This document shows, piece by piece, positions 20,887 through 29,383 of a stretch of 64,000 nt of DNA (position 1 is its first letter; every line of letters starts with the position of its first letter). The notes beneath the pieces were generated by a model. The model searched no databases, had not been told where the DNA came from, and was given only the letters and a program-made list of their open reading frames with translations. This DNA comes from an uncultured Oscillospiraceae bacterium (GTDB taxonomy: Bacteria > Pseudomonadota > Gammaproteobacteria > Burkholderiales > Burkholderiaceae_F), in contig CAVACW010000001.1 of NCBI GenBank assembly GCA_963587345.1, forward strand, positions 38,645 to 102,644, read 5' to 3'. A program made the translations under genes and the position numbers.

Positions 20887-22227
20887 ATGTCGGAATTCTG
20901 GAATCAATGTCTCGACGTGCTGCGGCAGAAACATGCGCAGGACGTCTTTCAAACGTGGTTTGCCGATCTCAAGGCTGATGACACGGGACTCGCCGATGGC
21001 GTGCTCACGCTCATCGCCGACTCCTCGGTGAAATCACGGACGATTCAGGAGTCTTACGGCAAATCGATCACCGCCGCCGTCAATCAGGTGGCGGGGCGCG
21101 ACGTTGACATCTCGTGGACCGTCGAGGCCTCCCCCGTGACGCCTCCCCCGGTGCAACCTGTCACGCCCACGCCGGCTAACCTGCAGGAGCAATCGGGCCT
21201 CCTGCCCAATCTCACCTTTGAAAACCTGGTGCTTGGCAGCGCCAACCAGCTCGCCTACGCTTCCGCCATGCAAGTGGCGACTGCCCCCGGCACACAATAC
21301 AACCCGCTCTTCATCTACGGCGGCGTCGGCCTCGGCAAGACGCACCTCATGCATGCCATCGGTCACAAGTTTCTGGAAGCGCACCCCAACGCCCGCGTTC
21401 GCTGCGTCTCCGCTCAGCAGTACATGAGCGAATACACGACCGCGGTGCGCAAGCTCAACAGCCAGGGCGAGCAGGCCATGCAGAGCTTTGAAGCACGATA
21501 TCAGGACCTCGACCTGCTTCTCATCGACGACATTCAGAGCTTTGCCAACCGCGAAGGCACGCAGACGAACTTCTTTCTCGCCTTTGAACGCATGGTGCCG
21601 CGCGGCAAGCAGATCGTTCTCACGAGCGACACCTACCCCCGCAACCTCAAGGACTTTCAGGAGCGTCTTCTCTCGCGCCTCACGCAGGGCCTCGTGGTGT
21701 CGGTGGAACCGCCGGAACTTGAAATGCGCATCCAGATTCTGATGCAGAAAGCGGATCGCTCCGGCCTTGAAATGCCCGAAGACGTCGCCGTCACCATCGC
21801 CAAGCGATTAAAGAGCAACGTCCGAGAATTGGAAGGCGCCGTCCAGCAGGTGCTCGCCTACACCAACTTCCACAATCTGCCGGTTACGATCGACACGGTG
21901 AAGGTGGCGCTTCGCGACATCTTCAAAGTAAGCGCCGTTCCCGTCACGATTGAAAACATTCAGCAAGCGGTCGCCGAGTACTACAACCTCAAGGTGGCCG
22001 ACATGTACTCCAAGTCCCGAAAGGGACCGATCGTTTACGCCCGTCAGGTGGCGATGTATCTTGCGAAGGAACTCACCCAGAAGAGCCTTCCCGAGATCGC
22101 TTCCTTCTTCGGCAAGCGCGACCACACGACCGTGATGTACGCCTGCCGCAAGATTCAAGCCGCCCGCAACACGGACGAAGGCCTGAAGCACGAAATCAAC
22201 ATTCTTGAGCAGCGGCTCAAGAATTGA
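20887..22227 (+). CDS. dnaA: Chromosomal replication initiator DnaA
   Basis: YNPLFIYGGVGLGKTHL, LLIDDIQ, NVRELEGA, RDHTTVMYA. Confidence 0.99.
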   Translation: MSEFWNQCLDVLRQKHAQDVFQTWFADLKADDTGLADGVLTLIADSSVKSRTIQESYGKSITAAVNQVAGRDVDISWTVEASPVTPPPVQPVTPTPANLQEQSGLLPNLTFENLVLGSANQLAYASAMQVATAPGTQYNPLFIYGGVGLGKTHLMHAIGHKFLEAHPNARVRCVSAQQYMSEYTTAVRKLNSQGEQAMQSFEARYQDLDLLLIDDIQSFANREGTQTNFFLAFERMVPRGKQIVLTSDTYPRNLKDFQERLLSRLTQGLVVSVEPPELEMRIQILMQKADRSGLEMPEDVAVTIAKRLKSNVRELEGAVQQVLAYTNFHNLPVTIDTVKVALRDIFKVSAVPVTIENIQQAVAEYYNLKVADMYSKSRKGPIVYARQVAMYLAKELTQKSLPEIASFFGKRDHTTVMYACRKIQAARNTDEGLKHEINILEQRLKN

Positions 22228-22250
22228 CGAGAAGTCCTTGTCAACTCCGC

Positions 22251-22277
22251 AAAATGCCGCCTGAAAGCGGCATTTTT
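22251..22277. terminator. Terminator-like hairpin between dnaA and dnaN
   Basis: AAAATGCCGC-CTGAAA-GCGGCATTTTT. Confidence 0.7.
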
Positions 22278-22348
22278 CAATTACAATAGTTCATTACTCT
22301 GCGTTTCGGCGCAATGAATCTCTAACTGATTTAAAAGGGATTTTCCAA

Positions 22349-23461
22349 ATGCCATTTATCAAGTGCACGCGTGACGCGCTTTTGAAGCCCCTCCAGATCG
22401 TCGGCGGCATCGTTGAAGGCCGCCAGTCGGTGGCCATCCTTTCCAACATCCTCGTGGAAAAGATGAACGAAAAGGTGACCTTCACGGCAACGGATTTGGA
22501 AATCCAGACTCAGGTGACCGCCATGGTGGGCGACGGCGAAGGCGAAGTGAGAACGACGCTTCCCGCTGCAAAGCTCACCGCGCTTTTGAACGCCATCACC
22601 GGCACGAGCACCGAAGTGACGCTCGAAGACGAAGGCCGCCACGTCGTGCTGCGCTCCGGCAACGACGCTCGCTTCAGTCTCGCGCCTCTCGCAGCGGACG
22701 GCTACCCCAAACTCACCGCGGGCACGATGGACGCTGAGATCACCGTGCCCGCCGCCGCCCTGAAGCACATCATCCAGATGGTGCACTTTGCGATGGCGCA
22801 ACAGGACGTCCGCTACTACCTCAACGGTCTTCTTTTCGTGATTGAAGGCGCCACGATTCGCGCCGTCGCCACCGACGGCCATCGCCTCGCCTGCTGCGAC
22901 GCCTCGCTTGAAAGCGAGAGCCCGGTGCGCGTGGAGGCGATTCTTCCCCGCAAGACGGTGATGCAGTTGATCAAGATGCTTCCCGACAACAACGATCCGG
23001 TGAAAGTGGAGATCTGCTCGCAGCAGGCCCGCTTCTCCTTCGGAAACATCGAATTTCTCACGAAGCTGATCGACGGCAAGTTCCCCGACTACAACCGCGT
23101 CATTCCTACGGGCAACGACAAGAAGTTCCTCATCAATCGCGAAGCCCTGATCGGCGCGCTGCGCCGCGCAGCCATTCTCACCAACGAGAAGTTCAAGGGC
23201 CTGCGCTGGGTGATCACCCCCGGGAAGCTTCACATCCAGAGCGCCAACTCCGAAATGGAGGAGGCGGCCGAAGACATTGCGATCACGTACGACGGCGACG
23301 AACTCGATCTCGGCTTCAACGTGACGTACCTCCTCGATGTGCTGGGCAACCTGAAGAACACGGAAGTGTGTTTTGCCTTCGCGAACTCTCAGGGCGCCAC
23401 GCTTCTCACGATGCCTGAAAGCGATCAGTTCCGCTACGTGCTGATGCCGATGCGCATCTGA
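22349..23461 (+). CDS. dnaN: DNA polymerase III beta clamp
   Basis: ATDLEI, QDVRYYLNG, VATDGHRLA, GKFPDY, YVLMPMRI. Confidence 0.99.
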   Translation: MPFIKCTRDALLKPLQIVGGIVEGRQSVAILSNILVEKMNEKVTFTATDLEIQTQVTAMVGDGEGEVRTTLPAAKLTALLNAITGTSTEVTLEDEGRHVVLRSGNDARFSLAPLAADGYPKLTAGTMDAEITVPAAALKHIIQMVHFAMAQQDVRYYLNGLLFVIEGATIRAVATDGHRLACCDASLESESPVRVEAILPRKTVMQLIKMLPDNNDPVKVEICSQQARFSFGNIEFLTKLIDGKFPDYNRVIPTGNDKKFLINREALIGALRRAAILTNEKFKGLRWVITPGKLHIQSANSEMEEAAEDIAITYDGDELDLGFNVTYLLDVLGNLKNTEVCFAFANSQGATLLTMPESDQFRYVLMPMRI

Positions 23462-23531
23462 TCGACCTGCCAACCAAAGCCGGATCGCTTCAACCGGCTT
23501 TTCCGGCACACTCAGGCTTCTCCTTCACTGA

Positions 23532-26120
<2,589 letters not shown>

Positions 26121-27096: not shown

Positions 27097-27169
27097 CGGC
27101 CCCAAAAAGGCCCTCTGCGGCGCTTGTTGTCCACAGCCCTTCTGTGGATATCAAGCGCCGTTTTGCGTC

Positions 27170-27640
27170 TTAAATACCTTCGTCTTTCTTCAGCGTGCGA
27201 CGCACCGTCATCCCAAGCGCTCGCAGCGAGATGCTCACCTCGCGAGAAAACAGCACGGTGGAGATGACGATGAAGCCCACGGCAAGAAAGAGCAGCAAGT
27301 CCTCCATGATTCTCAGATTGAGGCTGAACATTGTGGACAAGACGCTTGTCCACACTAGCAGCCCCGAGAAGGCAGCTGACATCACGACAAAGAGAATTGA
27401 TCCCTTTAGTAATTTAGATCTATGAAAAATAAGCAATATTTCTTCATTAATCAGTTTTACATCATCGCTTTTGTCTGACAGATTGACTATCTGCAACCGG
27501 CTTTTCAGCAGTTCGCGAATGCGATTTGTGGTGTGCGCATAACGTGCTGACATGGTGAGCATCAGAAGCCCTACGCCGGAAATTAACGTCACCGGCGTCA
27601 GCGCAGAACTTAGCACTGAAACAAATTCAACATTATTCAT
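27170..27640 (-). CDS. DUF2721-like membrane protein
   Basis: ALTPVTLISGVGLLML..RY...RIR; C-terminal REV.IS. Confidence 0.8.
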   Translation of the reverse strand: MNNVEFVSVLSSALTPVTLISGVGLLMLTMSARYAHTTNRIRELLKSRLQIVNLSDKSDDVKLINEEILLIFHRSKLLKGSILFVVMSAAFSGLLVWTSVLSTMFSLNLRIMEDLLLFLAVGFIVISTVLFSREVSISLRALGMTVRRTLKKDEGI

Positions 27641-27859
27641 AAAGTTCTTTCACCTGACATATAAGACTCTTTATACATTGTTTTTATAAAGTTTTCCCTT
27701 GGTGAGGGGGAAGATTTTAGTCATGGAAATTGGCCAAGGCACCTTTATTTGCGATCGGTTTGCCTTCGAAGCAAGAACTCCCTCCGCTTTACTTTCTCAC
27801 AGAGGGTCTGTGGAGAAGAACAGGAGTTCCACGCCTTCGAAATGCAAAAGGGCTTCCCT

Positions 27860-28111
27860 AAAAATGATAATTTTTTAAGATTTAAACATAACAGTAGTAA
27901 ACAATAGGGTGTGGACAAAACTGTTGATAAGCGGGGAAAATTAAGCAACATCAGTAGCTTAGCGTGTGGATAAAGCTGCGGAGACTAGGACGGAAAGGCT
28001 GTGGCCTGCCTGTGGATGGTTGTGTGGAAAAAGACGAGGGTAAAAACGGACGAAAAATTATCCGCAGATCGAGTCCAGTTGTTAAGACAGTTGTCCCATC
28101 TTTTATCCACA
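27860..28111. other. Replication origin module 1 (oriC-like)
   Basis: AT-rich tract 27860-27888; trios TAA CAG TAG TAA (A) CAA TAG; boxes at 27910, 27922, 27965, 28011, 28023; reversed boxes at 28058 and 28103; IHF-like CATCAGTAGCTTA 27949. Confidence 0.8.
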
Positions 28112-28270
28112 GCGACCGGAGGAAAAGCGAAGGGGAAGAGGGACTGTCGGCCAGAAGTGATTCGGAAGAGGGGAATTTTTGGTAGTGGAGGAAAGAGAAT
28201 ATTGATCTACAAGCTAAAAAACGTTCATTGCAAAGCGGCGACTACACTGGACGAGTTATTCCTGCCGTTC

Positions 28271-28514
28271 TAATAAAAATTTAATTTTTTAAATAACAGT
28301 AGTAACAATAACGGCGAACAACTCTGTGGATAAAAACTGAAAGTCATTTTATTTCATGGCTTTGAGCTGTGAAAAACGTTGGGGACGAGCGATCGGATTG
28401 GTTGTGCACAGCCTGTGGAGAGCTGTGTGGAAAAGAGGGGGGTAAAGAGCGGCTGAAATTCCATCCCCAGCGGACATCGACTTCTTCTTTGGATTGTCCA
28501 CAAAGTTTTCCACA
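28271..28514. other. Replication origin module 2 (oriC-like)
   Basis: AT-rich tract 28271-28293; trios AAA TAA CAG TAG TAA CAA TAA; boxes at 28325, 28368, 28403, 28414, 28426; reversed boxes at 28494 and 28506; IHF-like TTTCATGGCTTTG 28352. Confidence 0.8.
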
Positions 28515-28609
28515 GAGCCATTGGTCCGCAACGGGCCGCCGCTGTTGCGGTGAAGCGAAAAGCGCAGTAAATTTTCCCTGTTTTTCGTGTTTTGCTTGGA
28601 TGAGGCGGC

Positions 28610-29383
28610 ATGTTCAGCCTGGAAGTAATGCCTTGGTTCTCTCCGGCGGTTTCTCCGGAGATTGCCCGAGTCATGCACAACCTGGGATATCGTTCGGAGC
28701 TTTGGCCAGGCGAGGAGATTGGTCAGGGCTTTTTTCGCCGCGTTGTTTTTGTTGCCGGCGGATTTGCGGCAAATGCCTTGATTGCAACAGGCAGCCATGC
28801 GCCGCTGCAGATGACGATGGCGGGCGCAGGCAGCTTTGCGGTGACTGGAAGCGCGCTTTCGGTGGATGACAATGAGCCGCGCCGTTGCTGGGCGCTTACT
28901 CGATGTACGACGCTTTCTGTGAGTCCTGAAATATTGATTCGTCTTTCCGAAGTGGAAAGCGCCTGGAGTAAGGAGCTGACGTCGTACCATATGCGCCGTT
29001 GCGTGAGCGAGCGATTTGGTCAGATGGTCTGTCATGTAGCCAAGCCCGACCGTCGACTGGGCGTATTGCTGGCGACGTCTACGGAAGCTGTGAGTGCTTC
29101 CTCTCGCGGTCGGTTGAAGGAGTCAGCGGACGGCTGGGTTCGCCTGCCGCATCTTCCTTCGCGTAAACTCATTGCCTCGGTGATTTCCTGTTCTCCCACT
29201 ACGCTGGATCAGGTGATTCGCGACTGGATGGCGCAAGGTCTCTTTCGCCATGAAGGTGGTTCACTGTGGATGAAAAAGTCGGCAGTGAAGGAGCATCGGC
29301 AGTGGCTGACGCCCTTCCTGCAAATGCAAAAGGACATCGAGAAGGCCGTCAACGTGCGGTCGAATTTTCATTTTCCGGAGTAA
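28610..29383 (+). CDS. Divergent Crp/Fnr family transcriptional regulator
   Basis: cNMP-barrel-like N-half (VVFVAGG, ALTRCTTLSVS) and C-terminal HTH (PSRKLIASVISCSPTTLDQVIRDWMAQGL). Confidence 0.7.
   Translation: MFSLEVMPWFSPAVSPEIARVMHNLGYRSELWPGEEIGQGFFRRVVFVAGGFAANALIATGSHAPLQMTMAGAGSFAVTGSALSVDDNEPRRCWALTRCTTLSVSPEILIRLSEVESAWSKELTSYHMRRCVSERFGQMVCHVAKPDRRLGVLLATSTEAVSASSRGRLKESADGWVRLPHLPSRKLIASVISCSPTTLDQVIRDWMAQGLFRHEGGSLWMKKSAVKEHRQWLTPFLQMQKDIEKAVNVRSNFHFPE

Follow-up and report, generated by a model that had tools for sequence, protein, structure and literature searches.

A preprint on gammaproteobacterial origins predicts dual origins, oriC1 and oriC2, in Pseudomonadaceae and Halomonadaceae, and places a C of the IHF site 21 bases after the R1 box (bioRxiv 10.1101/2025.08.05.668638). 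The same preprint gives Pseudomonas aeruginosa as the sole known chromosome with two functional origins (bioRxiv 2025.08.05.668638), and another paper describes oriCII of this species as conserved, able to replicate a plasmid, dispensable on the chromosome, and active as a promoter activator (PMC13438810). In the literature retrieved, the two origins of such a pair are separated by distances between about 5 kb and 882 kb, as in Pseudomonas, Halomonadaceae, and the examples of PMC4403523, and duplications of the whole origin region are on record in BCG. A full-text literature search, which left out most subscription papers, the Halomonadaceae supplements, and DoriC, returned no complete tandem units in one gene gap. 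The locus described here resembles the dual origins of Pseudomonas and Halomonadaceae in having two complete units (DUE, trios, R1 box, IHF site, and box array) on one chromosome with one dnaA and in having the IHF C 21 bp after R1, and it shares the twin R1 boxes with the Halomonadaceae. However, the described copies are about 5 kb (Pseudomonas) or 20–30 kb (Halomonadaceae) apart and occupy separate gene gaps (rpmH-dnaA, mnmG), whereas ours share one gap at a distance of 150 bp. Furthermore, the right halves of the described copies differ, and they have been argued not to be recent duplicates, whereas here the layout is the same from end to end. An earlier note on this DNA knew of no described origin of this kind, which overlooked these dual complete origins; the layout also recurs across the order.

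Other known architectures resemble parts of the locus. Each unit shares element order, orientation, and a length of about 250 bp with the continuous oriC of the E. coli type, as given in a 2026 paper (PMC13643167), but that origin is present once and has GATC 13-mers, whereas here the layout is present twice and DnaA-trios replace the 13-mers. The units are also like the basal unwinding system (BUS) of B. subtilis and most bacteria, with tandem boxes, a spacer of 13–14 bp from the distal box, at least three NAN trios, and an AT tract, except that here two such modules occupy one locus. According to Pelliciari et al. (PMC8287927), 13 bp is the commonest spacer and a strong distal with a weak proximal box the commonest pair, which is the pattern of our unit 2. 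Bipartite origins (B. subtilis, H. pylori) and bilateral ones, which together with the canonical type are the only layouts given in the 2026 paper (PMC13643167), have more than one cluster of DnaA boxes, as does our locus, where the second DUE is flanked by arrays on both sides. Yet these origins have a single DUE, and the clusters of the bipartite ones are split by dnaA, whereas here a DUE and trios accompany every cluster and the clusters are not separated by a gene. The published BUS search kept a single candidate per genome (PMC8287927), and Ori-Finder 2022 is described in the preprint as unable to detect dual origins (bioRxiv 2025.08.05.668638). Since such searches give one candidate per genome, tandem arrays would be systematically missed.

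Anatomy and setting of the two units

The window, i.e., the whole stretch of 64,000 nucleotides that was analysed, contains two head-to-tail units of about 250 bp in one gene gap, 403 bp apart and 1.7 kb past dnaA-dnaN-gyrB. The gene order is yidC, an rnpA-like and an rpmH-like ORF (these three labels come from ORF translations), dnaA, dnaN, and gyrB (20887..26120, forward strand), a 5'-nucleotidase gene, a leftward DUF2721 gene (27170..27640, reverse strand), the two units, and then a divergent Crp-like gene (28610..29383, forward strand) and, after it, the gene of a BON-domain lipoprotein. The distance from dnaA to the two DUE-trio modules is 5.6 kb, and no gene separates the modules. No second dnaA was found in the genome, and the genome scan returned no origin unit upstream of the one present. 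The left neighbour of unit 1 is the DUF2721 gene, which points away from the DUE and is found at the locus in the four two-unit genomes only; the left neighbour of unit 2 is unit 1, and that of the unit in several single-unit relatives is a rightward gene. The matches of the Crp-like gene and its homologues to HTH_Crp_2 and cNMP are weak and under the Pfam cut-offs. A very divergent Crp-like protein adjoins the origin in many family members and is missing from that place in the G005/G008 clade; a regulatory role linked to the origin is conceivable.

GC skew changes sign at about 28 kb of the window, and the cumulative G-C minimum of the 138-kb contig (C1) falls at window position 27698, within a plateau that spans 27250–27750, and lies some 200 bp to the left of unit 1. 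The assembly has 240 contigs, so the curve is a contig-level one, and skew does not resolve sites 400 bp apart. The position of the minimum supports the prediction, already made in the earlier note, that the region is the chromosomal oriC. In the sister genome (G023), DnaA has the same sequence as a protein labelled Duodenibacillus massiliensis, so the genus of the genome studied here (G000) is likely Duodenibacillus, a genus of gut betaproteobacteria. Outside the units there are opposed pairs of DnaA boxes, 16 bp apart, at 27127-27151 and 27793-27817, and a third pair at 27332-27354; the first of these is conserved in G010 and G033, with perfect boxes in the latter. A non-coding RNA was rejected as a candidate at the locus, as the single Rfam match is a chance one (E 0.35) outside the units.

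Both units have the same orientation and the same order of elements: an AT tract, DnaA-trios, twin reverse boxes (-12 and 0), an IHF site at +27, reverse boxes at +43, +55, +78, +89, and +101, and forward boxes at +136, +169, and +181, so that each has a full left and a full right array. Every element class is thus present in each, as expected from the proposal of two complete origin units, and the twelve element pairs listed in the earlier note were all recovered at their coordinates and offsets. A gapless alignment of 27910-28111 with the copy 403 bp downstream has 56% identity, against 26 ± 4% over offsets of 300–519 and 40% for the next best offset. The spacing of 403 bp holds for the listed pairs, but the TAACAGTAGTAA strings that precede the boxes are 405 bp apart, which implies a 2-bp indel left of the -12 box. 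These strings had been seen before without being recognised as what they are, runs of NAN DnaA-trios in both units; they occur twice in the whole 3.1-Mb assembly, at 27889 and 28294. The listed DnaA boxes are likewise present, but several have 3–4 mismatches to TTWTNCACA (+55, +78, and +169 in the first unit; -12, +55, and +136 in the second).

Unit 1 (27862..28111, forward strand, like all elements of both units) is a complete predicted oriC module. It starts with an AT-rich tract (27862..27888, 89% A+T) that is a predicted DUE, with opening probabilities of 0.15–0.36 in a simplified supercoiling model. The DnaA-trios (27889..27907) read TAA CAG TAG TAA, then, after a register shift of one base, AAA CAA TAG; three are in the proximal register, 14 bp from the R1-type box, and four are shifted by one base. 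The same trio string is found in the sole origin of G023. The twin reverse boxes (27910..27930) are TGTGGACAA at -12 and the R1-type box TGTTGATAA at 0, with one mismatch each, and they are unchanged in G000, G010, G001, and the contig L207. The IHF-like site (27949..27961), which matches 8 of the 9 defined positions of WATCARNNNNTTR on which these sites were scored, has the conserved C 21 bases after R1. The left array (27965..28031) has the same offsets as single-unit relatives, most of which have a +99 box instead of +101, and the right array (28058..28111) consists of a strong box at +136, a weak one at +169, and a perfect one at +181. The linker (28112..28262) is 151 bp here and 151–184 bp in relatives, with 55–67% identity, gaps included, in five genomes.

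Unit 2 (28265..28514) is also a complete predicted oriC module. Its predicted DUE is a pure A/T run (28273..28290) with modelled opening probabilities of 0.61–0.83, and its seven trios are all in register (28291..28311; AAA TAA CAG TAG TAA CAA TAA), 13 bp from the R1-type box. The twin boxes (28313..28333) are a degenerate one at -12, GGCGAACAA, which has three mismatches and yet is invariant in four close relatives, and a perfect R1-type box, TGTGGATAA. The IHF-like site (28352..28364) matches 7 of the 9 positions; its TTTCAT variant is also found in the single origins of G008, G025, and G022. The element alignment places the left array, with the same five offsets, at 28368..28434, and the right array (28461..28514) has a weak box at +136, a strong one at +169, and a perfect one at +181. 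Box strengths are thus complementary between the copies: unit 1 is strong at -12 and +136 and weak at +169, whereas unit 2 is perfect at 0, strong at +169, and weak at -12 and +136. Both units carry the predicted BUS signature (three or more NAN trios no farther than 16 bp from a box that has two mismatches at most), and in both the predicted DUE lies, in the simplified model, about two helical turns from the reverse R1-type box. This 1 kb holds 7 of the genome's 91 perfect DnaA boxes, and GATC occurs three times in 660 bp.

The pair stands out in the genome. A matrix trained on 28 single-unit origins, from which the two-unit clade, G023, and G004 were left out, gives 82.4 to unit 2 and 59.6 to unit 1, the top and second scores, and 22 to the next best of the 6.2 million positions of G000. 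When each training origin was left out in turn, its score fell within 35–118, except for G026, which has a one-base shift in its arm and scored -2. Units 1 and 2 are also the sole sites in the whole genome that satisfy a model-free rule requiring a box, trios, an AT tract, and an IHF site, and Model R1 gives them 140.6 and 151.6 bits, respectively. The genome's second box cluster (C32:10290-10370) was rejected as a chromosomal origin; it belongs to a locus (L250, C32:10272-12200) in which four GGCAACTTGTGTAA direct repeats and a gene for a 484-aa RepA-family protein (PF10134) accompany five DnaA boxes clustered within 80 bp. Because it adjoins these repeats and this gene, the cluster is likely an iteron plasmid origin in the assembly, and similar partial model matches are found in G010:C62 and G001:C116. 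Genes for both IHF subunits are present in the genome: that of IHF beta is above its profile cut-off, whereas the best match for IHF alpha, in a scanned piece of 89 aa, is below it. SeqA and DciA were not found with Pfam profiles in any of five genomes (G000, G033, G001, G023, G031), an outcome that is alike in one- and two-unit genomes.

Distribution and conservation

We compared the region from the nucleotidase to the BON gene across all 33 other genomes of the genus. A sequence-only model built on 27 units, eight of them tandem, has 38 matches of at least 60 bits, in 34 of 34 genomes, and the next match is at 27.6 bits. One unit is present in 30 of the 34 (partial in G004) and two in G000, G010, G001, and G033, so that the two-module layout sought in relatives does exist and the rule of one unit per chromosome fails in 4 of 34. 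In a tree of DnaA, DnaN, and GyrB from 32 genomes, which leaves out G004 and G018 (without the region), these four form one clade with support 1.0, and the single-unit G023 is its sister. Both units are also present on contig L207 and on the metagenome contig L117; within the set of G000, G010, G001, G033, L207, and L117, spacings of 403 bp (twice), 422, 423, and 436 bp (twice) occur. The possibility of an assembly artefact can be set aside, because the copies have no more than 56% identity and because G010, G001, G033, L207, and L117 also carry the pair, diverged and at spacings of 403–436 bp. A metagenome pattern scan returned at least 118 stretches; among those listed, 113 are unrelated, three are G023-like with one unit, and two are G033-like, of which L117 has both units and L176 is too short to tell. 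In the origin unit of G004 (L052, C10), no AT tract or trios can be recognised where they normally lie, and extra boxes are present instead; the unit is possibly rearranged or misassembled.

Single-unit genomes of the genus have the same offsets, with +99 for +101, small shifts in the right arm, and, in the G005/G008 clade, a shorter right arm. The earlier note had taken the identical spacing as a mark of an old duplication. The pair is indeed old and clade-wide, but every single-copy origin of the genus is laid out with this spacing, so the indel-free match between the copies reflects normal constraint and is no proof of copying.

Elements vary much less than spacers in each unit. Among G000, G010, G001, and L207, the variable columns are 14/99 in elements vs 52/103 in spacers for unit 1, and 6/99 vs 61/103 for unit 2. 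Identity to G033 follows the same direction, with 64/81 in elements vs 34/96 in spacers for unit 1 and 54/81 vs 36/96 for unit 2. The columns of the AT tract and trios vary in 2/38 (unit 1) and 6/38 (unit 2) among four close relatives, and conservation extends to the degenerate boxes of both copies. The element columns are those listed in the earlier note, drawn from G000, and the species are kin, so that Fisher p-values overstate the significance; the contrast itself is nonetheless large. Judged from these substitution patterns, both copies are under purifying selection, in agreement with the claim that both have been kept. For the ORFs that overlap the units a coding explanation appears unlikely, because the variation among relatives is concentrated in spacers and extends to linker indels of 13–20 bp, as expected for DNA sites rather than codons.

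Multiple units are not confined to this clade. A match was found in 68 of 151 family genomes scanned. In genus g47, G099 and G115 have pairs 263 bp and 261 bp apart, respectively, between gyrB and the BON gene, and G079 has one unit; this pair (L218, L219), in a genus of 35% GC, is an independent one, in which the boxes of the first copy are weaker although its elements are conserved (differences: 4/64 vs 16/68). In genus g38 (G070 and G092; L221-L224) one full unit lies between dnaA and dnaN and a second, dispersed from it, precedes the Crp-like gene, in the manner of the dual origin of Pseudomonas. In G113 a gene separates two weak origin-like units that lie 2.1 kb from each other (L225, C36:10448-12767). 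In a scan of 151 genomes of the order, with arrays defined as same-strand neighbours within 1.5 kb, candidate arrays were found in G000 and seven others from five other families, f10 (three), f56, f57, f31, and f26. The copies of G045 (L252; 583 bp apart, left arms 76% identical) and of G235 (L253; 391 bp, left arms 88% identical, in a single-contig genome) are young duplicates. The pairs of G307 (429 bp, 54% identity), G201 (246 bp, 50%), G287 (725 bp, 45%), and G227 (244 bp, 40%) are more diverged, and G314 (L257, C1:1851000-1858000) has three successive origin-like units at distances of 615 and 778 bp, with genes in at least some of the intervals. The pairs of G227 and G201 (L255, L258), which are from different families, both lie between a glycosyltransferase gene and waaC. 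By eye, each of the order arrays has an AT- or trio-like run, an R1-type box, and an IHF-like site. Both copies satisfy the strict model-free rule in G000 and G307; a single copy does so in G227, G201, and G314, and no copy does in G045, G235, and G287. With no match in 93 of the 151 genomes (58 have one), the frequency of arrays in the order is rough.

Function of two units at one locus

The reading that we prefer, and to which we give an even chance, is that both units are competent for initiation and that they act as alternatives at a single start point, where one or the other unwinds. If they work like the origins of E. coli and B. subtilis, ATP-DnaA would load in each unit on the twin boxes and on the left array bent by IHF, would then extend over the DnaA-trios and melt the AT tract, and the converging arrays of the unit would load the helicases. 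Because the two AT tracts share one supercoiled domain, opening of one would suppress the other, so that one bubble, and one pair of forks, is predicted per round. Retention of the second copy may be due to initiation being more probable, or more steadily timed, when it is present; it would also bind extra DnaA. The spacing, which varies between 403 and 436 bp, and the poorly conserved linker fit independent units. Against this reading, fully redundant copies should decay, and the complementary strong and weak boxes hint at divided labour.

A model of supercoiling, which is our own simplification with assumed parameters and no proteins (DnaA is ignored), ranks the two DUEs above all other sites for destabilisation over 3 kb of G000, with opening probabilities of 0.15 (unit 1) and 0.83 (unit 2) at sigma -0.055, where both open together in 1%. 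The favoured DUE differs between species: it is that of unit 1 in G001 (0.89 vs 0.12 for unit 2) and that of unit 2 in G000, G010 (0.003 vs 0.99), and L207 (0.07 vs 0.93); in G033 the two (0.20 and 0.23) rank below a stronger upstream site. These values are indicative only, because the true DUE of single-unit controls has 0.99 in G009, 0.44 in G023, and 0.22 in G031, where it ranks second.

It is rather unlikely, although a serious alternative, that there is one working origin and that the other unit, dispensable for initiation, has been kept as a regulator binding DnaA and IHF, be it a sink, a site of ATP hydrolysis, or a control of the flanking promoters (DUF2721 leftward, the Crp-like/BON operon rightward). 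There is a direct precedent: oriCII of P. aeruginosa, which the chromosome can do without, replicates plasmids and activates gidAB-parAB (PMC13438810), and oriC1 is often downgraded in Halomonadaceae (bioRxiv 2025.08.05.668638). Given that oriCII is conserved all the same, a complete-looking conserved unit need not fire in vivo. The region 27600-28700, for which 1.2 ± 1.2 sigma-70-like sites are expected, has five, of which four fall within the units, and unit 1 scores under unit 2 with the matrix in four of the close genomes, but in G033 the units score equally (87.7 and 87.1). AT tracts and trios serve unwinding rather than box binding. They are conserved in both units, and a sink or an activator needs neither. 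A sink of the datA type has DnaA boxes and an IHF site without a conserved DUE or trios, whereas both our units keep them; for the same reason a pure DnaA-titrating decoy appears the least favoured of the four functions proposed in the earlier note. Nor is there a lost regulator to replace: Hda is present in all four two-unit genomes (G000, G010, G001, G033), which rules out that the second unit stands in for it.

A cooperative, composite origin, in which one DUE opens while the arrays of the neighbour stabilise it or load the second helicase, or in which each unit loads one helicase, is unlikely. The forward boxes of unit 1 lie 150–200 bp left of the second DUE, a bilateral geometry that still loads DnaB in engineered E. 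coli origins whose right array was moved left of the DUE (PMC13643167), and the complementarity of strong and weak boxes between the copies would suit such an arrangement. The spacings of 403, 403, 422, 423, and 436 bp correspond to 38.4–41.5 helical turns with fractional parts of 0.19–0.52, but they represent three independent length changes only, one of which (+13 bp) breaks the phase, and helical phasing was rejected because independent lengths are too few. Moreover, each unit retains full left and right arrays, both face the same direction, the linker is unconserved and changes in length, and spacings in other lineages range from 244 to 778 bp. Two initiation-competent units, either of which may open, remain our preferred reading.

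History and meaning of the pair

We infer that the pair likely arose by tandem duplication in the ancestor of one clade, on the basis of its restriction to this clade, the adjacency of the units, and a few shared derived bases. Identity does not reveal the copying, because the copies (0.56–0.61) are no more alike than some unrelated origins are to them: the unit 1 orthologues of G000 and G033 have an identity of 0.57, and unit 2 has 0.58 to the unrelated origin of G031. Between-copy identity is at saturation, and the module tree, with supports of 50–57, has no resolution at depth. The derived bases, -30 A, -19 C, and +103 T, together with the +101 box, are common to all ten units and mostly to G023, and the bases occur in 0/13, 1/13, and 1/13 outgroups, respectively. 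The left arm of unit 1 matches the sole origin of G023 (45/55), which carries unit 1 bases in 6 of 7 diagnostic columns, all of them left-arm positions; the right end of that origin is somewhat nearer to unit 2 (22/35 vs 15/35 against G000, 23/35 vs 20/34 against G033). The single origin of G023 may be either the state before duplication or a collapsed chimera.

A competing account concerns where unit 2 came from and not its function. It holds that the origin of another lineage or locus, such as the dnaA-dnaN unit of related genera or one of the G005 type, was moved beside the resident one. The trio string and weak -12 box of unit 2 match the sole origins of G005 and G016, its 22-bp trio region being identical to that of the distant G005; its sequences do not group with unit 1 in the module tree, and one of the two dispersed units of g38 is indeed located between dnaA and dnaN. 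Yet both units share with the sister G023 the derived bases rare in the 13 outgroups and the +101 box, the right array of unit 2 has the offsets of the main clade and not the G005 layout, and obvious young duplicates do occur elsewhere, at 76–88% identity in G045 and G235. We consider such an import improbable. That one copy is a neutral, decaying leftover, as the several sites per copy with 3–4 mismatches might suggest, is hardly credible, since spacers are saturated and elements, degenerate sites included, are nearly invariant in both copies over five genomes.

Complete head-to-tail units conserved across species would be a further origin architecture, against the usual picture of one origin. 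They offer a natural experiment on why there is usually one origin, on how orisomes 400 bp apart avoid double firing, and on how origins arise, and the young (88% identical), old (about 50%), and triple arrays make up an evolutionary series. Tentatively, and with doubt prevailing, many members of the order (Burkholderiales, a name that we take from that of the genus) might have tandem arrays of two or three complete oriC units within one gene gap that were repeatedly duplicated and selected, that compete through supercoiling with one firing per round, and that diverged in affinity for tuning or switching. If this were true, the copy number of the origin would be an evolvable dial of replication control, masked by databases that record one site per chromosome.
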